12,112 bases of DNA from a virus (IMGVR_UViG_2526164632_000015:1-12112), one strand, 5' to 3'. Shown: positions 1 through 12,112, counted from the stretch's first letter. Numbers and translations are program-made. The notes: generated by a model from the sequence alone, not told the origin.

Positions 1-2
1 GC

Positions 3-182
3 TATGGGCTGACAGTGACGGACTCGTGCCTCTTCACCAAACGCCTGGAGCGGGGCCGCTTCGTCTGGCCGGTCACCCGCGATGGAAAGGTTCACCTTAC
101 TCCGGCTCAGTTGTCCATGCTTCTAGAAGGCATCGACTGGAAGCACCCGAAACGAACGGAACGCGCTGGCATCCGCATATAA
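3..182 (+). CDS. tnpB: IS66-family TnpB (orf2), C-terminal fragment, 5' end cut by window edge
   Basis: Frame ending at TAA 180-182 translates to ...CLFTKRLERGRFVWPVTRDGKVHLTPAQLSMLLEGIDWKHPKR..., closely matching the C-terminus of the complete TnpB at 10123-10470 (...CLLTKRLERGRFAWPSARDGKVFLTPAQLAMLLEGIDWRQPKR...). Confidence 0.85.
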   Translation, partial: YGLTVTDSCLFTKRLERGRFVWPVTRDGKVHLTPAQLSMLLEGIDWKHPKRTERAGIRI

Positions 183-201
183 CCCGTTGTAAAGTGAGGA
201 T

Positions 202-1773
202 ATGGACACCTCACTTGCTCATGAGAATGCCCGCCTGCGGGCACTGTTGCAGACGCAACAGGACACCATCCGCCAGATGGCGAAATACAACCGCCTGCTC
301 TCACAGCGGGTGGCGGCTTATGCTTCCGAAATCAACCGGCTGAAGGCGCTGGTTGCGAAACTGCAGCGCATGCAGTTCGGTAAAAGCTCAGAAAAACTTC
401 GCGCTAAAACCGAACGGCAGATACAGGAAGCACAGGAGCGAATCAGAGCACTTCAGGAAGAAATGGCGGAAACGCTGGGTGAGCAATATGACCCGGTACT
501 GCCATCCGCCCTGCGCCAGTCTTCAGCCCGTAAACCGTTACCGGCCTCACTTCCCCGTGAAACCCGGGTCATCCGGCCGGAAGAGGAATGCTGCCCGGCC
601 TGTGGTGGTGACCTCAGTCCTCTGGGGTGTGATGTGTCAGAGCAACTGGAGCTTATCAGCAGCGCCTTTAAGGTTATCGAAACACAACGTCCGAAACTGG
701 CCTGTTGTCGGTGCGACCATATCGTGCAGGCAACAGTACCTTCAAAACCCATTGCACGCAGTTATGCCGGAGCGGGGCTTCTGGCCCATGTTGTTACCGG
801 GAAATATGCAGACCATCTGCCGTTATACCGCCAGTCAGAAATATACCGTCGCCAGGGCGTGGAGCTGAGCCGCGCCACGCTGGGGCGCTGGACAGGTGCC
901 GTTGCTGAACTGCTGGAGCCGCTGTATGACGTCCTGCGCCAGTATGTGCTGATGCCCGGTAAAGTCCATGCTGATGATATCCCCGTCCCGGTCCAGGAGC
1001 CGGGCAGCGGTAAAACCCGGACCGCCCGGCTGTGGGTCTACGTCCGTGATGACCGTAACGCCGGTTCGGAAATGCCCCCGGCGGTCTGGTTCGCGTACTC
1101 ACCGGACCGGAAAGGTATCCATCCACAAAATCATCTGGCCGGTTACAGCGGTGTGCTTCAGGCCGATGCTTACGGTGGTTACCGGGTGTTATACGAATCC
1201 GGCAGAATAACGGAAGCCGCGTGTATGGCTCATGCCCGGAGAAAAATCCACGATGTGCATGCAAGAGTGCCCACCGACATCACCACGGAAGCCCTGCAGC
1301 GTATCGGTGAACTGTATGCCATAGAGGCAGAAGTCCGGGGATGTACAGCAGAACAGCGTCTGGCGGCAAGAAAAGCCAGAGCTGCGCCACTGATGCAGTC
1401 ACTGTATGACTGGATACAGACTCAGATGAAAACACTGTCGCGTCACTCGGATACGGCAAAAGCGTTCGCATACCTGCTGAAACAGTGGGATGGCCTGAAC
1501 GTGTACTGCAGTAATGGCTGGGTGGAAATCGACAACAACATCGCAGAGAACGCCTTACGGGGAGTGGCCGTAGGCCGGAAAAACTGGCTGTTCGCGGGTT
1601 CCGACAGCGGTGGCGAACATGCGGCGGTGTTGTACTCGCTGATCGGCACATGCCGTCTGAACAATGTGGAACCAGAAAAATGGCTGCGTTACGTCATTGA
1701 GCATATCCAGGATTGGCCGGCAAACCGGGTACGCGATCTGTTGCCCTGGAAAGTTGATCTGACCTCTCAGTAA
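202..1773 (+). CDS. tnpC: IS66-family transposase TnpC (orf3), intact, 523 aa
   Basis: 523-aa ORF with GAGGA Shine-Dalgarno upstream. It has an N-terminal coiled-coil-like region, a CxxC...CxxC zinc-ribbon (CCPACGG...CCRCD) and the conserved IS66 transposase core ([38 protein letters not shown]). About 70% identical in the C-terminal half to the copy B TnpC. Confidence 0.9.
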
Positions 1774-1803
1774 ATATCAATACGGTTCTGGCGAGCCGCT
1801 TAC
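1774..1803. repeat. Right terminal inverted repeat of IS66 copy A
   Basis: 30 bp between the tnpC stop and the terminal ...CGCTTAC; shares the AGAACCGTATTGA core with the copy B right end. Exact inner boundary of the repeat is uncertain. Confidence 0.6.
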
Positions 1804-1844
1804 GATACACCGTTATATTCAAATTGTTCTGTTTTCAGGAACAT
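1804..1844 (-). pseudogene. G: 5' remnant (13 codons) of lambda G-like tail assembly chaperone gene, cut by IS66 copy A
   Basis: Minus-strand ATG at 1842-1844 lies 18 bp downstream of the gpV stop and reads MFLKTEQFEYNGV before hitting the IS terminus at 1803. This matches my recollection of the lambda gpG N-terminus (MFLKTESFEHNGV...) and the expected V-G gene order. Confidence 0.7.
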
Positions 1845-1862
1845 CGCTTATCTCTCAGCTCT

Positions 1863-2609
1863 TTAGCCACCCGGCACATTATTAACGGTAATTTCAGCCA
1901 CCGCAGCAAACTGACCATTACCGGAAATCACAGGGATGCTGACTTTTCCATCCTTAACCCCCGTCACAGTAATCGTCATATCTTTCACGCTAATGGTGGC
2001 TTTTGATGGATCGGCGGAAATCGCCCTGAATGTCTTATCCGTTGCATTTTCCGGTTCCACAGTAACGGTCAGGGTGGTTGTTTTCCCTTTTTCAACCGTA
2101 CCTGTCGGCGTTACCTTAATCGCAGTGACCGGCGTAATTTTGCTGCGTTCTTCCGCTACAGAAGGTTTACCCACGTTAGTGACTTTCACCGTGCGGGTGA
2201 TCACTTCTTTCGCCGTCACGGCCTTACCGATACTGCTGACCCAGCCACGAAACACATCCACCGTGCCATTCGGAAAACGGATTTTATAGGCCCGGACATC
2301 GCCGCTTTCAAACCAGCCTATAAGCCCTTTCTGGCCTTCCTCTCCCGGTTTCCAGGCCAGTGTAAAACTGGTATCACCTGCAGATTTCTGTCCCTGCCCG
2401 GTCGCGCTCCAGTCCGCGTCTTCATCATCCAGGTAGTTATCATCGTAGGATTCTGCCGTCATCTCGCCCGGCGTCAGATCCTTCACCTTAGCCAGTCGCT
2501 GCCAGTCATCATCTGACAACGGGTTGGCATAAGCATCATCCTTGCCGGTGTACACCCATAGTGTGGTGCCGGAACCTTTCACCGGCTCAAGAGGATTTGG
2601 TATTGCCAT
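1863..2609 (-). CDS. V: Major tail protein (lambda gpV homologue) with C-terminal Ig-like domain
   Basis: 248-aa ORF. Motifs [59 protein letters not shown] and [40 protein letters not shown] match lambda gpV as I recall it. C-terminal ~90 aa is a beta-rich Ig-like region. Confidence 0.92.
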
Positions 2610-2616
2610 ATCGTCC

Positions 2617-3015
2617 TCACATCTCGTAGGTAATTTTCCACAGGAGATCTGCCGATCCCCACATCATAAACTCATCATCCCGGCGGTAGTCATACCCCTG
2701 AAGATTCATCTTCAGCAGTAACGCACTGAGGCCGGGAACCGCCTCCAGCGCAGGAAGGATTTTCTCTTCCATCCACATATCCAGTGCCGAGTCCGGTTCT
2801 TTTGCCCTGAGAAAAACTTCAATATGCAGTGTCGCCTCCCAGGTCCCCTCATCAACGAACTCGTCAGCAGCAGACGCATCAGTCAGGTAAACAGCAACAG
2901 CAGGCAGTTCCTGTTCATCAATAAAAACCGGGCGGCCGTCAAACCAGCTCACCCGCTCAGAAATATTGTCTTTCAGGGCAGACAGAACTGCCGTCCGTAT
3001 TTCACGGTGTTTCAT
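2617..3015 (-). CDS. U: Tail terminator protein (lambda gpU homologue)
   Basis: 132-aa ORF. Start [11 protein letters not shown], internal LHIEVFL and C-terminal GYDYRRDD...SADL...ITYEM match the lambda gpU pattern. Sits between Z and V as in lambda. Confidence 0.88.
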
Positions 3016-3027
3016 ACACCCTCCCTG

Positions 3028-3657
3028 TCATTTTCTTTTCAGCACCAGGCGTAACTGATGCGTCATGGCTTTCATCATCTGCGCCGGTAATTTTTCCCGG
3101 TACATCCGGTCCCGTTCACGTTCAAAAGTTTCTGCCAGCGGTCCGGCAGTCGGAATTTTCACCACTTCAATCGGCAGACGGTAGCGTTTCGGCCTCCCTT
3201 TGCTGTCAGCACCGGTGGACGATGGTGCCCACGGCATACGCTGCATCACATGCCAGCGTCCGTTAGCCAGCCGGGTGATAAAGGCGTCCGGGATCCGTCT
3301 TTTCCCCACAATCAGCACACTGCCGCCCCCTTTCTTGACCGAACGCTCGCCTTTCTTTCGTCGCTTTCTGCGGGAAAGCCGCACGCTGGCCGTCCCCAGT
3401 TTTATGGCGGGCAGATTACCGGTGTTGATGATGACCTTCGCATAAATCCTGTCTGCGCTAGCCCGTTGCAGGCGGATACGCTCACGGATGAGACGGCGCG
3501 GAACCGCCAGCTCCCTGGCAACCGAAGAGGCCGTTTTCGCGATGATGGACTCCGCCACACGGTTAAGTGTCGTGGCGGCAGCCCGGGGAACGGCACGGCG
3601 GTCAATTGCATCCAGATTTTTCATGGCCTGCGCCAGACCTTTTATTGCCATACTCAT
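3028..3657 (-). CDS. Z: Minor tail protein Z (lambda gpZ homologue)
   Basis: 209-aa ORF. MAIKGL..., LPAIKLG, RLSRRKRRKKGERS..KGGGSVLIVGKRRIPDAFI..LANGRWHVMQR track lambda gpZ closely. Confidence 0.88.
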   Translation of the reverse strand: MSMAIKGLAQAMKNLDAIDRRAVPRAAATTLNRVAESIIAKTASSVARELAVPRRLIRERIRLQRASADRIYAKVIINTGNLPAIKLGTASVRLSRRKRRKKGERSVKKGGGSVLIVGKRRIPDAFITRLANGRWHVMQRMPWAPSSTGADSKGRPKRYRLPIEVVKIPTAGPLAETFERERDRMYREKLPAQMMKAMTHQLRLVLKRK

Positions 3658-3935
3658 TCCTGTTCGACAAAAATCCGGGGTTTACCGTTGTACGTGTCAT
3701 AACGGGTCACCGTCAGTGTGCGCCCCGCAAACACAACAACATCATGACGGGCCGGACGGTACCGGGCTGAAAACACCACCAGTGACAACTGGCTGCCCGA
3801 AAGCGCCCCCATCTCCGCGGACTCTTCCTCCGGCATCACGTCATACACGACGCCGTTAATCTCCGCCTGTTTGCCCATCACCCGAACGGTCGCCCCGTCC
3901 ATCCGGCAACACATTCGCGTAAACAGATCAGACAT
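3654..3935 (-). CDS. Small head-tail joining protein (gpFII-position, head-tail attachment-like)
   Basis: 93-aa ORF in the position lambda FII occupies before Z; start overlaps the upstream gene by 8 bp. Assignment is by position and size only. Confidence 0.5.
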   Translation of the reverse strand: MSDLFTRMCCRMDGATVRVMGKQAEINGVVYDVMPEEESAEMGALSGSQLSLVVFSARYRPARHDVVVFAGRTLTVTRYDTYNGKPRIFVEQE

Positions 3936-4254
3936 TGATTTTTACCGCCACAGTGGCGCTGTTTGCAGGAGCATTTTCCCAGGCTACCCCCGCGGCCACC
4001 GCACCCTCTGCAGCCAGCTGCACAACCCCGTCCTTCAGATAAACCACCGCGCCGGACTGAATGTCGTCAGCAGACTGTTTGGGCAGAAGGAACACGCCTT
4101 CGGCAAAACCGTCACCGGCATCACCGGCAGGAATATCTGTAATGGCCACGGCCACCATACTGCCGACCACCACCGCAGCACCGCTCAGGATGGTCTGATC
4201 TCCGGCATTCACCAGTTCAATGGTGGTACCGTCCTGTACAAAATTTTTCGCCAT
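3928..4254 (-). CDS. Small Gly/Ala/Val-rich head protein, putative decoration/cement protein (DUF2190-like)
   Basis: 108-aa ORF with a good Shine-Dalgarno (GGAGAAA about 8 nt upstream of ATG) immediately after the capsid gene. Composition is beta-rich G/A/V. Function inferred from position and composition. Confidence 0.5.
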   Translation of the reverse strand: MAKNFVQDGTTIELVNAGDQTILSGAAVVVGSMVAVAITDIPAGDAGDGFAEGVFLLPKQSADDIQSGAVVYLKDGVVQLAAEGAVAAGVAWENAPANSATVAVKINV

Positions 4255-4270
4255 AATGCTGTTTCTCCGG

Positions 4271-4293
4271 ACAGCCCCTGTGGGGCTGTTTTT
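4271..4293 (+). terminator. Perfect 8-bp stem / 3-nt loop hairpin followed by T5 on the + strand
   Basis: ACAGCCCC-TGT-GGGGCTGT followed by TTTTT (4289-4293). Lies in the 86-bp gap between the capsid and decoration genes, directly upstream of the decoration gene's ribosome-binding site on the minus-strand mRNA. Confidence 0.4.
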
Positions 4294-4300
4294 CAGGCAT

Positions 4301-4318
4301 AAAAAAGCCCTTTCGGGC
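4301..4318 (-). terminator. Short GC hairpin with GAAA loop followed by U6 on the minus (coding) strand, just after the capsid stop
   Basis: Minus-strand reading is GCCC-GAAA-GGGC then TTTTTT (reverse complement of 4301-4306). Only a 4-bp stem, so at best a weak or partial terminator. Confidence 0.3.
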
Positions 4319-4340
4319 AGTGATTGTGATAACTCGGTTA

Positions 4341-6320
4341 TCAGGCCACCGACGAACGCACCAGCCCGCGCCAGTCAAGTGGTGCCACTCCGGCATCAAT
4401 ACGGATTTTTGTGGCAATGCCGTCAGTGGTGAAACCTTCCTGCTGATCAATGTATGGCGTGTCCACACCATCCAGCCAGGCCACTTCAATGGTGTCAGTG
4501 CCCTGTGCCGCCGCCAGATACCAGGTTTTCGGATCTGCCGCATCAAGACGCGCTTCTGCAATCACCTCAGCAAAGTTCTGGATGGGGTTAATGACACCGG
4601 CGTTTGCATCCGCCCCTTTCACACTGGCCGATTTGATGGTCTGGTTCGCCACCGTCTCCAGTGCCACCGGTACCAGCATAAAGGCCGGACGGATATTCAG
4701 GGCGCGATCGCCTTCTTTCTGCAGGCGCATCATCTGACGGGCCGCATCCAGTCCGGAAACGGAAATCCCACCGGTGGCAATATTTTTGTGATCGGCATGG
4801 AACAGCGCCTTACCGTCTGACAGTTTCGGGTTATCCGTCAGCACCTTGTAAACCAGGTCACCAATCGTTGCCTTCGCCGCACGCCCCATCTTCATCGGCA
4901 CGTCCACCAGCATATTCAGATCATCATTGATAATGGCCTGGCGGGTGATGGAGAAAATCTCCCCGTAAGTGGCCAGTGCAATGGTCTCCTTGCGATCTGA
5001 GGTGGTGATGTATTTATACTCCGCCCCCTCACGAACCTGGCGCAGAGAACCAAAACCGCCCATCCCCACGCGATACGCTGTTTTGAAGTCTGACAGGCGT
5101 CCCTTACGGGTCCACTTCTGGAAGGTTTCTTCTGATTCCTCCCAGCCCTGGATCAGCCCCTTGTTCGACACATCCAGCAGAATATTGCCAAAATCAGAGG
5201 TGCTGTGCGTCAGCGCCAGCCCGACCATCTGCATGGGGTTATAACTGGCCACCCCAATACCGCGCTCCGTCAGTGACATGCGAGCCCATTCACGCAGGGT
5301 CATCCCGTTATAGGCGTTATCCTTCTCGACATTTTCAAATCCGGCACGGGCCAGCATCGCCTGGCGGATCCCGTCCCCCACAAAATTGCCGTTTCCGGCA
5401 TAAATATGAGCCGGTGTATTTTTGTTGGTCGGCGAGGACTCCTTGCCCATTTCATTCAGCAGACGTTCACGGGCCATTTCCAGCGAACAGTCAGGATCAG
5501 CCACGCACTGTGCCTGAAGCGTCTGATAGCGACCGCCGAACATGGCAAACAGATCGTTAATGCCTGACATGCGGGCTTTCTGTTCTGCCATAACGCGGGC
5601 GCGAATGGTCGCCTCATCAGACACTGCCGGTACCGGTGATGGTTCTGTTACCGCCGGTGCAGGGATTGTCACTGTGGTATCACGCGGGGCACTGTTGTAT
5701 GGCTGCGTGATCATATTTCGGATGGATTCCGGCATCTTTTTAAATTCCTCTGTACGTTTTGACTGAATACATGCCATTGCCTTAACGGCTGGCGTCACCT
5801 GGTCTGCAAATCCGTGTGCCAGACACTCGGCACCGGACATCCAGGTCTCATCCGCCAGCATGGCGGCAATTTCATCGGTAGTTTTTCCGGTTTTCTGCGC
5901 ATATACCGGCACCATAACCGACTCAAGTTTGTCCAGACGTTCGGCATAAGTGCGCATTTTCTCCGCATCACCACCGCTGATCCCCCAGGGTTTATGGATC
6001 ATCATGAAGGCATTTTCCGGCATAATGACCGTGTCACCGGCCATCGCAATCAGGGATGCCATCGAGGCGGCAACGCCATCCACATACACGGTAATGGCCG
6101 CACCGTGATTTTTCAGGGCATTAAAAATGGCGATGCCTTCAAAGACATCGCCACCCGGTGAGTTGATGTGGAGATTAATGTGGGTGATATCACCCAGGGC
6201 ATTCATATCGCTGACAAACTGCTTCGCGGTAACTCCCCAGAAACCAATCTCGTCATAAATATAAATATCCGCCTCACCCTGACCACCCGCCTGCATCCTG
6301 AACCAGGATTTATTCTTCAT
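4341..6320 (-). CDS. Fused head maturation protease (ClpP-like) / scaffold-like linker / HK97-fold major capsid protein
   Basis: One uninterrupted minus-strand frame. N-terminal ~200 aa carries ClpP-type motifs (HINSPGGDV, VDGVAASMASLIAMAGD, MMIHKPWG). A charged, helix-prone linker follows, then a ~300-aa C-terminal capsid-like region. The longest ORF runs to 6512, but that extension overlaps the portal coding region; start chosen at M65 (ATG 6318-6320, MKNKSWFR...). Start codon is uncertain; 6296 is an alternative. Confidence 0.8.
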   Translation of the reverse strand: MKNKSWFRMQAGGQGEADIYIYDEIGFWGVTAKQFVSDMNALGDITHINLHINSPGGDVFEGIAIFNALKNHGAAITVYVDGVAASMASLIAMAGDTVIMPENAFMMIHKPWGISGGDAEKMRTYAERLDKLESVMVPVYAQKTGKTTDEIAAMLADETWMSGAECLAHGFADQVTPAVKAMACIQSKRTEEFKKMPESIRNMITQPYNSAPRDTTVTIPAPAVTEPSPVPAVSDEATIRARVMAEQKARMSGINDLFAMFGGRYQTLQAQCVADPDCSLEMARERLLNEMGKESSPTNKNTPAHIYAGNGNFVGDGIRQAMLARAGFENVEKDNAYNGMTLREWARMSLTERGIGVASYNPMQMVGLALTHSTSDFGNILLDVSNKGLIQGWEESEETFQKWTRKGRLSDFKTAYRVGMGGFGSLRQVREGAEYKYITTSDRKETIALATYGEIFSITRQAIINDDLNMLVDVPMKMGRAAKATIGDLVYKVLTDNPKLSDGKALFHADHKNIATGGISVSGLDAARQMMRLQKEGDRALNIRPAFMLVPVALETVANQTIKSASVKGADANAGVINPIQNFAEVIAEARLDAADPKTWYLAAAQGTDTIEVAWLDGVDTPYIDQQEGFTTDGIATKIRIDAGVAPLDWRGLVRSSVA

Positions 6321-7811
6321 GCTGGCTGTCGGTGGCCTGCTGACGCTGTTGTTCAGTTCCGGCACTGTTGCCTCCTTTGTCGTTGACGGGGTCAGTATCA
6401 AAGACCAGCCCCAGTCTGCTGTTTTCATCAATTTCAGCCTTGCGGCGACGTTTGACCTCATCCGGATTGCGCCCGCCGGCACGCACCCAGTCAGATTCTG
6501 TCGCTGCACCACCCCGGATCTGAATTCTCCAGGCTTCAGCTTCCTTAACCGGGTCGATCCACGGCATCACCGGACCGGAATACGTCGCGTTATATAGCGT
6601 TTTCATCTCCACATCCGCCGGAATTTTCAGCAGACCTGCCGCAACCACCATATTCAGCCATGTCCGGTACACCGGACGGGTTACCGCGCCAATAAAACAG
6701 TCCTGCAGGATCAGGTAACCATCCGTGGACTCGACCAGCTCCTGCCGCTGGGCACTGTAGGTGCCGTTATAGTTACGCGCCGCACTGGAAAAACTCAGAC
6801 GACTGCCCGCTGCCACTGCACGCAACTGGCCGTTGCGGAAAGTTTCAAGGTTGGGATTGGGACGGTCTGATTTGACCATGCCGATATCCTCGCCCTTGCG
6901 CAAATCGTCATAAATAATACCCGGGGTGATATGGACTTCCCGGTCGGTTTCTTTGATCCCCGGCTCTTCATAGTCCTGCCCGTCACCTTTACGGATATAC
7001 AGTCCCAGCGCCGCGGCAATACGCGCCGCAGTGAGTTCCGCATCCTCATACTCCTTAAGGGCACTGATCCGCATCAGCACCCCCGATAACATGGATGAGC
7101 CTCGCGTCTGATGCAGACGACGAGTGAACTTCAGGTGGATCATTTTTCCGGCAGCGATTTCTTTCGTATCACTCTGCCGGCCGCTGACCGGATAATTTTT
7201 ATAAACCAGATATTTTTCGGTCTTCCCCACTCATCAAGAAAAACCCCCTGATTCAGTCCGGCGGATTCATCAGTGCGCATGGGAACAAAATCCGGCTCCA
7301 TCGCCTCAAGCCAGAATGGCACTCCCGCCGTCCGTTCCAGACCGTTTCCCGCACCACTGACCATCTGCGCAAACACTTCACCATCCCGCAGCCAGGTCCG
7401 CAGCAGTAAACGTTCAAGCACGGGACGGGTATACTGCCCTGTCACATCCGGACTCACGGACCACTCAGCCCACAACCGGCGGATATCCGCAGCCAGCTCT
7501 GCCGCCATTTCCCCGTTTTTTCGTAATGGCTGAGGCTCCACAATAATTCCCCTGGCACCAATCACCCGCTCTTCCAGCTTGTCAAACACACCAATCACCA
7601 GGTCATGATTGATATCCAGAAAACGGGCCTGCTCCCGCAGGGAAACCGCACCGTATTTACTGAGCTGATCAGCAGAGCGATTTTCCCGCCGGGCTTTATG
7701 TGTCCGGGTCGGTTTCACCGCCTCATAGGCCATGATTAACGCCCTTGAACGCAGTCTGGCTGCTTTCCAGCCGGGGGAAAACACGCCTATCACATCATCA
7801 ATAATTGCCAT
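6310..7811 (-). pseudogene. Phage portal protein, split by a single-base frameshift (or homopolymer sequencing error)
   Basis: Two overlapping minus-strand ORFs (7811-7140, 223 aa; 7230-6310, 306 aa) sum to a typical ~530-aa portal and sit between gpW and the protease/capsid gene. The frame switch must lie between 7233 and 7200, where there is an A5 run on the coding strand (T5 at 7213-7217 on +). Adding one A would read ...LDEWGRPKKYLVYKNYPVSG... Confidence 0.75.
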
Positions 7812-8047
7812 TAAAACCTCGCCAGTTTAAATCCTGGTTTTCCCCGCCTGCGGCTCACCATCGCGGCAAGCCTGCGTTCCCACTCCTGACGTCCGGCGCG
7901 GATCTGAGAAAGGCTTTCCAGCGTCAGTTGCTGTCCGTTGAAGGTGACAGACTTCCCCTCCAGTACGGCCATTTCCGCTTCACGGTACCGCTGTATCATT
8001 TCTCTGGCTTCTTCTGTGCTCACAACCAGCCTCCTGATGTTATCCAT
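7811..8047 (-). CDS. W: Head-tail joining protein (lambda gpW-like)
   Basis: 78-aa ORF between terminase large subunit and portal, as W is in lambda. C-terminus ...RRRGKPGF resembles the lambda gpW C-terminus (...RRRGPAGF) as recalled. Stop overlaps portal start (TAATG). Confidence 0.65.
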   Translation of the reverse strand: MDNIRRLVVSTEEAREMIQRYREAEMAVLEGKSVTFNGQQLTLESLSQIRAGRQEWERRLAAMVSRRRGKPGFKLARF

Positions 8048-9640
8048 GGATTATCTTCCGCACGCTCCGTCCGCAGTTTTTTCTTCCGGCGACGGCGTTT
8101 TTCTGCCCCGGCCGTCAGTTCCGGGGATACCGTTTCACCAGAACGCTCCTGCGGGAAGACGAGCCACGTTTCCCGCTGTGCCCAGTCCGGTGCGGAGGGC
8201 CAGCGGATCTTTTCGTAACCATGCAGAACGGCAAGCGCATCCGCATAAACCAGCAGGTCAAACGCCTCGTTAGCTCCCCTGCCCGGTTTTCGCCATTTTC
8301 CGTCACTGCCGCGCTCTTCATAGGTCAGCTCATCGTAAAACCATCGCCCCAGCCAGTCGGGAAAGTGGATATAGTTCGGCCCTGGTGTGTCACGCCACAG
8401 GGCATTATTTACACGGTCCTTAAACGCATCCGTCTGAACCAGCCACAGCGCGACATCGCCACTGGCTCTGGCACGGCGGGCACTTCTGCCGGTATTATCC
8501 GGGAAGGTACGGTTAATCAGCCTGTCACGGCGAAGTCCATCCCCCTTGAACAGAAACACCCTGTTGCCCAGTCCGTCACTCCGGCAACGACACCAGAAAC
8601 GATAGGCGTTATCTGTCACCCCGGCTTCCCCTCCCGTATCCACCGCCATGGCCATCAGACGCATGCGCACATCCGGATCAGAAGCCAGCGGCCATGTTTT
8701 ATGGAACACATCCGTCAGCAACAAATCCCAGTCCTCCGGATATGCCGCCGGATCAACCGGCAGACTTTCACCGTTGGGACTGCAGCGCAGTGAATGCCGG
8801 ATGTTATAGCGATCAACAATCCAGCGTTCCCCCTGCTCTCCGTATCCGGTGATCTGCACAACAAAACGGCGATTTTTACCGCCCTGTACGTCAACCGTTG
8901 CCTCAATAAAACGCACACCATCCGGCACAGATCGCCGGGGAAACGGCTCGGCACGCTGTTCAAGCAGTTCACTTTTACGCTGTTCCGTGGCTGAACGGGG
9001 CAGATAGGGGCGTCCGATATCGGTGTTCACCACCGCTTTCAGGGTCTCTTCACTGCCGGTTCGCTCATACTCTTCTTCTGCCGCCAGCAGTTTAAAAATC
9101 AGTTGTTCCCAGGTCTGAAACGCCGCAGCCGGCCCCTCCATCCAGAATGACGCAATCCGGGAATTTCGTGGCGTTCCGGTGATACTGCCGTCCGCCACCG
9201 CCCGTTCACCTTCACGAAGCCAGATCCCTTTGTTATTCAGTTCGCGTTTCTGCTCAGGGGCAATCAGCCCGCGACAATGCGGACACATCAGACGGGCAGC
9301 CTGACCGGCAGCCACAAAATCCGGGTTATTCCGGTATCCGGTCATGTTATCCATCACCGGCTGAAAATATTCCCCGCAGTGCGGACACGGCCAGTACCAC
9401 CGGCGGCGGTCTCCCCGGTTATACAGTGACAGGATCCCCGTTGTTGGCGGTGCCTCATGTGCGCCGCCACAGCGCCATTTGGTGTCAGTGATATCCCGCC
9501 CCGGCGAACTCTCGACCAGGGTCATCCCCGAGGACATAAAGGTGGTGGTACGCTTTGATGCCAGGGTGAAGGCATCCCCTTCCCCGTCCACGTTTTCAGG
9601 GAAACGGTCATAATCCGTCAGCGCCACACGACGGTAATCC
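8020..9640 (-). pseudogene. A: Terminase large subunit (lambda gpA family), N-terminally truncated by IS66 copy B
   Basis: About 540 codons of open frame with a CPHCGE...CPHC zinc-binding segment and a C-terminal region (IHFPDW..., NEAFDLLVYADALAVL) resembling lambda gpA. Typical gpA proteins are ~640 aa; the frame runs straight into the IS terminus at 9641. The ORF track extends it to 9723 only because the frame stays open by chance inside the IS. Confidence 0.8.
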
Positions 9641-9672
9641 GTAAGCGTCGTCTCAGCACCGTCTGGCAGATC
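9641..9672. repeat. Left terminal inverted repeat of IS66 copy B
   Basis: GTAAGCGTCGTCTCAGCACCGTCTGG...; matches the right-end reverse complement at positions 1-8 and across the CAGCACCGT region. Imperfect. Confidence 0.55.
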
Positions 9673-9721
9673 CTGAAATTCCTGAGAGAATAGTGGACAC
9701 CAAATATGGTGGACGCTATCC

Positions 9722-10126
9722 ATGAAATCATTAACCGCAGTGCGTAAAAAAAGCCCTAATTATCCCGTTGAGTTCAAAATCAAAATGGTTGAACTCTCGC
9801 ATCGACCAGAGATCTCCGTAGCGCAACTCGCTCGTGAGCATGGGATCAACGATAATTTGCTGTTCAAGTGGCGCCAGTACTGGCGCGAAGGAAAACTACG
9901 TCCTCCTTCAACAACAGAAAACAACGTGCCTGAGCTGCTCCCGATAACACTTGATGCCGAAGATGTTGTCCCTACAACCTCCCCCCGGTCACAACCTGTA
10001 GCTGCTGCGACACCTGAATCACTCAATATCAGCTGTGAAGTGACGTTCCGGCACGGATCACTCCGTCTGAATGGTGCCATCAGCGAAAATATCCTGAACC
10101 TGCTGATACGGGAGCTCAAACGTTGA
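9722..10126 (+). CDS. tnpA: IS66-family TnpA (orf1), small helix-turn-helix protein
   Basis: 134-aa ORF, first gene inside the IS, followed by tnpB with overlapping stop and start. The true start codon may be internal. Confidence 0.75.
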   Translation: MKSLTAVRKKSPNYPVEFKIKMVELSHRPEISVAQLAREHGINDNLLFKWRQYWREGKLRPPSTTENNVPELLPITLDAEDVVPTTSPRSQPVAAATPESLNISCEVTFRHGSLRLNGAISENILNLLIRELKR

Positions 10127-10470
10127 TCCCATTACCATCAGGGACAAAGATCTGGCTGGTCGCTGGCATCACCGATATGAGAAACGGCTTCAACGGCCTG
10201 GCGGCAAAGGTGCAGACGACGCTGAAAGACGATCCGATGTCAGGTCACGTTTTTATCTTCCGTGGGCGTAATGGCAGTCAGGTAAAGCTCCTCTGGTCTA
10301 CCGGCGATGGACTGTGTCTGCTGACCAAACGGCTGGAGCGCGGCCGCTTCGCCTGGCCGTCAGCCCGGGATGGCAAAGTGTTCCTCACACCGGCACAGCT
10401 GGCGATGCTGCTGGAAGGTATCGACTGGCGGCAGCCTAAAAGACTGCTTACGTCCCTGACTATGTTGTAA
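10123..10470 (+). CDS. tnpB: IS66-family TnpB (orf2)
   Basis: 115-aa ORF (MIPLPSGTKIWLVAGITDMRNGFNGLAAKV...). Apparent TTG start overlaps the tnpA TGA stop (TTGA), suggesting translational coupling. Confidence 0.8.
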   Translation: MIPLPSGTKIWLVAGITDMRNGFNGLAAKVQTTLKDDPMSGHVFIFRGRNGSQVKLLWSTGDGLCLLTKRLERGRFAWPSARDGKVFLTPAQLAMLLEGIDWRQPKRLLTSLTML

Positions 10471-10518
10471 GCCTCTTTATCCTGGTCGACGCTGAATGAG
10501 CCTGGTAATATACCCGGT

Positions 10519-12058
10519 ATGAGCAGCTCACTTCCTGACGATATCAATGCACTGAAACGTCTCCTTGCCGAACAGGAGGCGCTGAACCGTGCCCTGCTGG
10601 AAAAGCTGAACGAGCGTGAACGCGAAATAGACCATCTGCAGGCACAGCTGGATAAGCTGCGCCGGATGAACTTCGGCAGCCGCTCCGAAAAAGTCTCCCG
10701 TCGTATCGCACAGATGGAAGCTGACCTGAAGGCACTTCAGAAAGAAAGTGATACCCTTACCGGTCGGGTTGACGACCCGGCCGTGCAGCGCCCGCTGCGT
10801 CAAACCCGCACCCGCAAACCGTTCCCCGAATCACTCCCCCGCGATGAAAAACGGCTGCTGCCGGCAGCATCATGCTGCCCGGAATGTGGAGGCTCACTGA
10901 GCTATCTGGGTGAGGATGCCGCCGAACAGCTGGAGTTGATGCGCAGCGCCTTCCGGGTTATCCGGACTGTACGTGAAAAAGCATGCCTGTACTCAGTGCG
11001 ATGCCATCGTGCAGGCCCCCGCGCCTTCACGGCCCATCGAGCGGGGTATCGCAGGACCGGGGCTGCTGGCCCGCGTGCTGATCTCAAAGTATGCAGAGCA
11101 CACCCCGCTGTACCGCCAGTCTGAAATGTACGGCCGCCAGGGCGTGGAGCTGAGTCGTTCACTGCTGTCGGGCTGGGTGGATGCATGCTGCCGGCTACTG
11201 TCACCGCTGGAAGAAGCGCTTCAGGACTATGTGCTGACTGACGGTAAGCTCCATGCTGATGACACGCCTGTCCCGGTGCTGTTGCCAGGCAATAAGAAAA
11301 CGAAGACCGGGCGGTTATGGACCTACGTTCGTGACGACCGTAACGCCGGGTCAACGCTGGCGCCGGCGGTGTTGTTCGCTTACAGCCCGGACAGAAAAGG
11401 CATCCATCCGCAGACCCATCTTGCGGGGTTCAGTGGTGTACTGCAGGCGGATGCATACGCCGGGTTCAACGAGCTGTACCGGGATGGCCGGATAACGGAA
11501 GCCGCCTGTTGGGCTCACGCCCGCCGTAAAATCCACGATGTGCACGTTCGCACCCCGTCAGCCCTGACGGAGGAAGCGCTGAAACGGATCGGCGAACTGT
11601 ACGCCATCGAGGCAGAGATAAGGGGAATGACGGCGGAGCAGCGCCTTGCCGAACGTCAGTTGAAAACGAAACCGCTGCTGAAATCCCTGGAAAGCTGGCT
11701 GCGTGAAAAGATGAAAACCCTGTCGCGACACTCAGAACTGGCGAAAGCGTTCGCATACGCCCTGAACCAGTGGCCGGCGCTGACGTACTATGCAGATGAT
11801 GGCTGGGCTGAGGCGGACAATAACATCGCTGAAAATGCGTTGCGGATGGTCAGTCTGGGCCGCAAAAACTACCTGTTCTTCGGTTCGGATCATGGAGGAG
11901 AGCGGGGAGCGCTGCTGTACAGCCTGATCGGGACGTGCAAACTGAACGGAGTGGAGCCAGAAAGCTACCTCCGCTATGTCCTTGACGTCATAGCCGACTG
12001 GCCGATAAACCGGGTCGGCGAACTGCTCCCCTGGCGCGTAGCACTGCCGACTGAATAA
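10519..12058 (+). pseudogene. tnpC: IS66-family transposase TnpC (orf3) with a +1 frameshift at an A5 run (10976-10980)
   Basis: ORFs 10519-11124 and 10973-12058 together align colinearly with the intact copy A TnpC. Removing one A from the run restores ...[20 protein letters not shown]..., parallel to copy A ...[20 protein letters not shown]... Confidence 0.8.
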
Positions 12059-12095
12059 CACATCCCCGTCAATACGGTTCTTGCTGCACGCTTAC
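12059..12095. repeat. Right terminal inverted repeat of IS66 copy B
   Basis: ...CAATACGGTTCTTGCTGCACGCTTAC; shares the AGAACCGTATTGA core with the copy A right end. Confidence 0.6.
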
Positions 12096-12112
12096 CATCA
12101 AACATCGTGGTT

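Follow-up and report, generated by a model that had tools for sequence, protein, structure and literature searches.

The unmatched octamers beside an ISEc22 copy in a draft Escherichia coli prophage contig most likely reflect an assembly chimera at a repeat boundary

Members of the IS66 family make 8-bp direct duplications of their target (PMC3916326). A copy that carries two different octamers is known from P. syringae DC3000, where the central ISPsy5 of a 165-kb tandem duplication has one direct repeat from each of the outer elements; the duplication is backed by doubled read depth, PCR and junction deletion (PMC3916326). A second system for comparison is the repeat-boundary chimera, in which a multi-copy IS has been collapsed in an assembly. 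Here we describe a copy of ISEc22, an IS66-family element, that has unrelated octamers on its two sides and resembles both of these systems.

The DNA analysed (the window) is an entire draft contig of 12,112 bp, AIHC01000031.1, from assembly GCA_000250255.2 of E. coli DEC12C, and the record stops at position 12112. It is made up of three blocks: part of an IS679-type element (1-1803), head and tail genes (1804-9640) and a complete IS66-family element (9641-12095). The unique core of the contig is 7.8 kb of prophage head and tail genes with a multi-copy IS66-family element on each side. With the second element ending at 12095, 17 bases of right flank remain before the end of the contig.

The first block (1-1803, plus strand), copy A of the original prediction, is the right-hand 1.8 kb of an IS679-type member of the IS66 family, attributed from its Pfam IS66 transposase domains, by alignment, and from the matching element of the closed E. 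coli O111:H2 genome 12A, which is placed in the IS679 family in RefSeq. It is cut by the contig start and its final bases, up to 1803, are ...GAGCCGCTTAC. In the block at 1804-9640 the head and tail genes are lambda-like and lie on the minus strand, with the C-terminal part of the terminase large subunit as the last. At its left edge IS679 has truncated the gene for the phage tail chaperone, gpG, of which the first 41 nt are present (1804-1844, minus strand); this piece was identified by alignment to 12A (12A L003, 9147-9187). At its right edge the lambda-like terminase large-subunit gene, gpA, is represented by its C-terminal 540 codons (8020-9640, minus strand), with Pfam matches to GpA_ATPase (partial) and GpA_nuclease. 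The terminase gene is cut by the second element at 9640, although the listed ORF continues to an ATG at 9723, inside the IS.

The second element (copy B; 9641-12095, plus strand) was recognised as ISEc22 from its Pfam domains, RefSeq names, comparison between copies and its terminal repeats. Judged against RefSeq-annotated copies, it shows 99.7-100% nucleotide identity to those named ISEc22 (for example, in O26:H11 11368 and O111:H2 12A). Its genes are, in order, tnpA (9722-10126), with a helix-turn-helix (HTH) domain, tnpB (10123-10470), which is IS66 Orf2-like, and a DDE transposase gene (10519-12058) with leucine-zipper, zinc-finger and IS66 C-terminal domains; the Pfam matches are PF01527, PF05717, PF13007, PF13005, PF03050 and PF13817. 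The terminal repeats (GTAAGCGT... on the left and ...ACGCTTAC on the right) are imperfect inverted repeats beginning GTAAGCG. The two ends share their first 8 bases, and further in the matches are scattered. In identity, in the tnpA-tnpB-transposase layout and in its GTAAGCG... ends the window copy is like the known copies. It differs from them in length (2455 bp instead of 2454 bp), in its split transposase and in the unrelated octamers on either side.

The first two differences come from one base. The transposase is divided into two ORFs by an extra A at 10976 (plus strand; A5 instead of A4), a +1 frameshift that comparison between copies places in AIHC01000031.1 only. It is absent from copies B and X (see below) of 12A and from the copies in O26 11368, AIHE01000008.1 and BN01. 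We had considered it as a real allele common to the frameshifted BN01 copy, but the frameshift of BN01 lies elsewhere and this was rejected. The resulting transposase fragment at 10519-11124 (protein EHX38958.1, ECDEC12C_5859) is found in a single public contig, AIHC01000031.1 itself. Apart from this base and its flanks, the element of the window is an ordinary ISEc22.

The two junctions read ...CGACGGTAATCC|GTAAGCGTCG...GCACGCTTAC|CATCAAACATCGTGGTT, with the octamer GGTAATCC on the left (9633-9640) and CATCAAAC on the right (12096-12103). The original prediction that the 8-bp flanks of this copy are unrelated is therefore borne out, whichever setting of the right octamer is used. The right octamer had been given as ATCAAACA, which corresponds to 12097-12104 and is one base off. 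This slip gives some colour to the idea that the ends were misjudged and that a duplication would emerge on a shift of a few bases, as the prediction had itself allowed. We give this practically no credence: the uninterrupted terminase gene of E. coli 55989 (the empty site) reads ...CGACGGTAATCCGAAGAAG... and contains GGTAATCC once, while the filled site of 12A reads ...GGTAATCC|IS (2454 bp)|GGTAATCC GAAGAAG.... Together the empty and filled sites fix the ends at 9641 and 12095, which refutes a displaced boundary, and no shift brings the left and right flanks into match. The left octamer is identified by the same comparison as the left copy of the duplication made by the terminase insertion.

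Exact 8-bp duplications were found at four independent ISEc22 insertions (GGTAATCC, CATCAAAC, CAGTGAAC and CTTTTTCC). Taken with the filled site of 12A and the empty site of 55989, they make the missing duplication a real departure in the record. This departure belongs to the record and not to the ISEc22 element, because the identical insertion has GGTAATCC on either side in 12A and in AIHE01000008.1, a 283-kb draft contig of a sibling strain.

The insertion is shared by the closest relatives. Over 1804-12095 (10.3 kb) no substitution separates the window from the closed 12A genome, and the differences consist of three homopolymer indels of one base each (4300, 7212 and 10976), which indicates the same lineage with sequencing-type errors; none of the three indels of AIHC01000031.1 is present in sibling assemblies. 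ISEc22 lies at the identical terminase base in 12A, in FDAARGOS_1059 (also closed) and in AIHE01000008.1. In each of these the IS is followed by a second GGTAATCC, then by the 5' part of the terminase gene and then by a DUF1441 gene, which occupies the position of the small subunit. When the IS and one octamer are taken out of the 12A sequence in silico, a terminase ORF of 707 aa, the length of the intact homologues, is recovered; in RefSeq the C-terminal part in 12A is labelled 'missing N-terminus'. The IS insertion in the terminase gene is of an ordinary kind, has been inherited and inactivates a prophage. It had been suggested that the terminase 5' end and Nu1 might have been deleted. This is unsupported, since both follow the IS, after the second GGTAATCC, in every other assembly of the lineage that spans the junction. 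The fusion protein of the terminase N-terminal part and the IS end had no exact match in the protein collection, since the annotated pseudogene stops at another point than the ORF, and a homologue search with it returned no DEC12C entry.

The origin of the right flank can be read from the last 17 bases of the contig (12096-12112, minus strand; CATCAAACATCGTGGTT). Their minus strand reads AACCACG ATG TTT GAT G, which is the start of the chromosomal gene yeaL. A 37-mer consisting of 20 bases of the IS end and the 17 flanking bases was found in 2 of 5426 complete E. coli genomes, 12A and FDAARGOS_1059. In both, the match is to a second ISEc22 copy (copy X), at yeaL/yoaI, and not to the terminase copy. 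Copy X is inserted just past the yeaL start codon and has its own perfect duplication, CATCAAAC; the yeaL site is empty in 5407 of the 5426 genomes. The lineage thus contains at least two ISEc22 copies (B and X). Given the exact 17-base match to the right flank of copy X, the window combines the left flank of B with the right flank of X, and its ISEc22 bears one target octamer from each of these parental copies. In a first megablast search the right flank had appeared to correspond to the ISEc22 copies near cybC in O26/O103 strains. This was rejected, as the junction there reads CAGTGAACATCTG... and the alignment had merely run on through mismatches. An exact scan for the IS end with the 17-base flank in a contig collection holding one genome per species gave no match, a result of little weight.

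The source of the right flank bears directly on an IS-mediated adjacent deletion, extending rightward from the terminase copy and taking with it the terminase 5' end and Nu1. This prophage does provide examples of IS66-family copies that have no duplications and have lost adjacent DNA (in closed 12A, the IS679 found between gpK' and gpL' has unrelated octamers). However, the first eight bases of the new flank are precisely the octamer duplicated at the ISEc22 copy in yeaL, and a chance deletion endpoint at this position is not credible. In addition, 12A has yeaL on the left side of the prophage, at a distance of 931 kb, and a rightward deletion reaching it would take most of the chromosome, including oriC. 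We regard an adjacent deletion as effectively refuted.

An IS flanked by one octamer from each of two copies is also the exact product of recombination between them, as for ISPsy5 in DC3000, an IS66-family precedent (PMC3916326). Homologous recombination in DEC12C between the terminase copy and the yeaL copy would give a hybrid ISEc22 with one flank from each, and the junction between IS679 and gpG' (see below) provides another real IS66-family difference in the same prophage of the DEC12C lineage. The arrangement of the copies makes such an event demanding. B and X are direct repeats in both closed genomes, 931 kb and about 880 kb apart. In 12A the interval from yeaL to the prophage runs from 2.426 to 3.357 Mb. 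The 12A record begins at mnmG, adjoining oriC, so the origin falls outside the stretch between B and X. With direct repeats and oriC outside the interval, the product of a single step would be either an origin-less circle of 0.9 Mb or a tandem duplication of ~0.9 Mb, with the hybrid junction at the centre of the latter. An inversion would require a prior event that flipped one of the copies, since they are in direct orientation. In this case the hybrid junction would be one end of the inversion, and the terminase 5' part and the Nu1-like gene would be found beside the remaining part of yeaL. The orientation, the spacing of ~0.9 Mb and the position of oriC thus reduce the choice to an unstable duplication of very large size or a history in two steps. 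This geometry was read from 12A and FDAARGOS_1059, and the arrangement in DEC12C may differ.

A recombinant is further constrained by a nucleotide difference within the element. At position 11722 the window has a G, whereas copy X of both closed genomes has an A. A real crossover would therefore be confined to the final 373 bp, 15% of the element. A SNP at 10364 was dropped as a crossover marker: it is private to copy X of 12A, and the SNP at 11722 alone is common to both closed genomes. As for the junction, its whole support is the 17 bases with which a draft contig ends. The hybrid form is missing from both closed relatives, and the ordinary duplication is present in the sole sibling draft contig to span the site. 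The comparison with ISPsy5 also has its limits: the interval is 165 kb in DC3000 against about 0.9 Mb here, and the junction in the window is known from contig sequence alone. For these reasons we consider a real recombinant unlikely.

The mismatch between the octamers is, in our view, most likely an artefact of draft assembly at a repeat and not a rearrangement in the cell, a judgement drawn from the relatives and from the geometry of the copies. Reads from several near-identical ISEc22 copies may have been merged; the consensus would then have exited the repeat along a read of the yeaL copy, after which the assembler stopped. In the terminase gene, the DEC12C chromosome itself would be expected to resemble its closest relatives, with an ordinary ISEc22 that has GGTAATCC on either side and, beyond it, the 5' part of the terminase gene and the gene resembling a small subunit (DUF1441). 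The right junction of an undeleted terminase copy would read ...GCACGCTTAC|GGTAATCCGAAGAAGAAAATACAG.

The resemblance to a repeat-boundary chimera is close. Only 17 bases separate the hybrid junction from the end of the contig, and it falls where a multi-copy repeat stops and the reads of all copies diverge; the length of the repeat exceeds that of short reads. In the lineage, the foreign flank genuinely belongs to a different copy of the repeat. Both parental junctions are intact in the closed relatives, and the hybrid has no support from other assemblies, being found neither among the complete genomes nor among the related draft contigs retrieved. There is one difference: the contig crosses the whole IS instead of halting at its near edge, and it is by inference that we assign the junction to a chimera.

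A contig stop near the far edge of the repeat is expected for a chimera and for a recombinant alike, and the 17-base stop by itself does not discriminate between them. The main weight of the argument is consequently borne by the relatives and by the way in which the two copies are arranged. The start of the contig is also unreliable: within bases 1-470, at its IS679 end, 4 positions disagree with all IS679 copies of the complete genomes. We take the DEC drafts to be 454-type data, for which the pattern of homopolymer errors is the sole support. The original prediction of a post-insertion rearrangement involving another IS copy can thus be retained in one respect, since a second copy (X) is indeed involved; the junction itself is better explained by an assembly chimera.

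The other IS junction of the contig has a different status. The boundary between IS679 and gpG' (1803/1804) was confirmed in an independent contig, NMLS01000094.1, and is absent from the 5426 complete genomes, 12A included. This junction is real and the structure of DEC12C is not identical to that of 12A, so that an IS-driven change has occurred in this prophage in this lineage. A simple insertion of IS679 at gpG would show GATACACC on either side; the alternative is an adjacent deletion from gpL' to gpG. Whether the octamer mismatch is a chimera or a recombinant, the prophage is already defective, with its terminase interrupted and, in DEC12C, gpG cut after 41 nt.

The mismatch is best classed as a probable repeat-boundary chimera in a draft contig. 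Where an IS copy touches the end of a draft contig, the lack of a target-site duplication should not be taken as a rearrangement, and AIHC01000031.1 is no basis for claiming that the terminase 5' end or Nu1 has been lost. If the junction were real, the recombinant ISEc22 would join the prophage terminase to yeaL, either in a tandem duplication of ~0.9 Mb spanning the terminus region or through a multi-step inversion separating the two halves of the terminase gene. Even so, the mismatch would represent a textbook IS-mediated rearrangement: one more case of the well-known duplications and inversions mediated by ISs, in an EPEC O111 lineage.

At its right-hand end, the IS679 element of the window directly adjoins the prophage gene gpG (junction at window 1803/1804), of which only the first 41 nt remain (gpG', window 1804-1844). 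An identical junction occurs in an independent contig, NMLS01000094.1. It was found in none of 5426 complete E. coli genomes, and is absent from both closed relatives, 12A and FDAARGOS_1059, and from the related AIHE, AIHA and JXVV draft contigs. Since it is exact in NMLS01000094.1 and absent from the other genomes and contigs compared, the junction is real and a feature of the DEC12C lineage alone. Relative to 12A, it would have originated either in a new IS679 insertion or in a 4.3-kb adjacent deletion extending from gpL' to gpG.

The closed strain 12A itself carries an IS679 between gpK' and gpL' (positions 2099-4802 of the prophage region L003). This is flanked by unrelated octamers (left, AATAATCC; right, TGATATCG), and the gpL C-terminus and gpK N-terminus, roughly 0.24 kb, are missing beside it. 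Because the 12A genome is closed, the element can be regarded as a true case of an IS66-family copy that lacks a target duplication and has lost neighbouring DNA.

Some features of the window concern the quality of the draft. Comparison with 12A and the sibling assemblies revealed three one-base homopolymer indels and no substitutions. The indels, at window 4300 (intergenic), 7212 (splitting the portal gene) and 10976 (splitting the ISEc22 transposase), look like draft sequencing errors. At the left contig end, within IS679 (window 1-470), there are four differences (at 4, 25, 125 and 447) from the neighbouring IS679 of 12A, and no copy in the complete genomes matches this stretch at more than 99.1%. 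This suggests that the consensus at this end of the contig is of low quality or derived from mixed copies.

ISEc22 includes a predicted outward-reading start in its left end (window 9641-9723, minus strand; also 3567-3649 of L004, the yeaL locus carrying copy X). The ATG lies 83 nt within the element and the predicted ORF crosses the terminal repeat outward. In the window it shares the reading frame of the truncated terminase, giving a predicted ORF of 567 aa, and in copy X that of yeaL, which is annotated in RefSeq as an intact DUF441 protein with a predicted start within the IS. An independent ISEc22 insertion occurs at another site in the terminase gene of a different prophage, in E. coli BN01 (L015, 2296-4750). 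It has a target duplication, CTTTTTCC, and its transposase carries its own frameshift (C5 versus C4 at window-equivalent 12027).

A related prophage (97% identity) of another E. coli (L013, from DADEPE010000068.1) has lost its entire set of head genes and the majority of its tail genes, and no IS remains. Here the N-terminal part of the terminase continues, without a change of frame, into the C-terminal portion of gpL (about 1040-1060 of L013). The breakpoint, GGATTAC|GGTCC, is at most one base from the ISEc22 insertion point. This proximity may be a coincidence or may represent the footprint of an IS-associated deletion.
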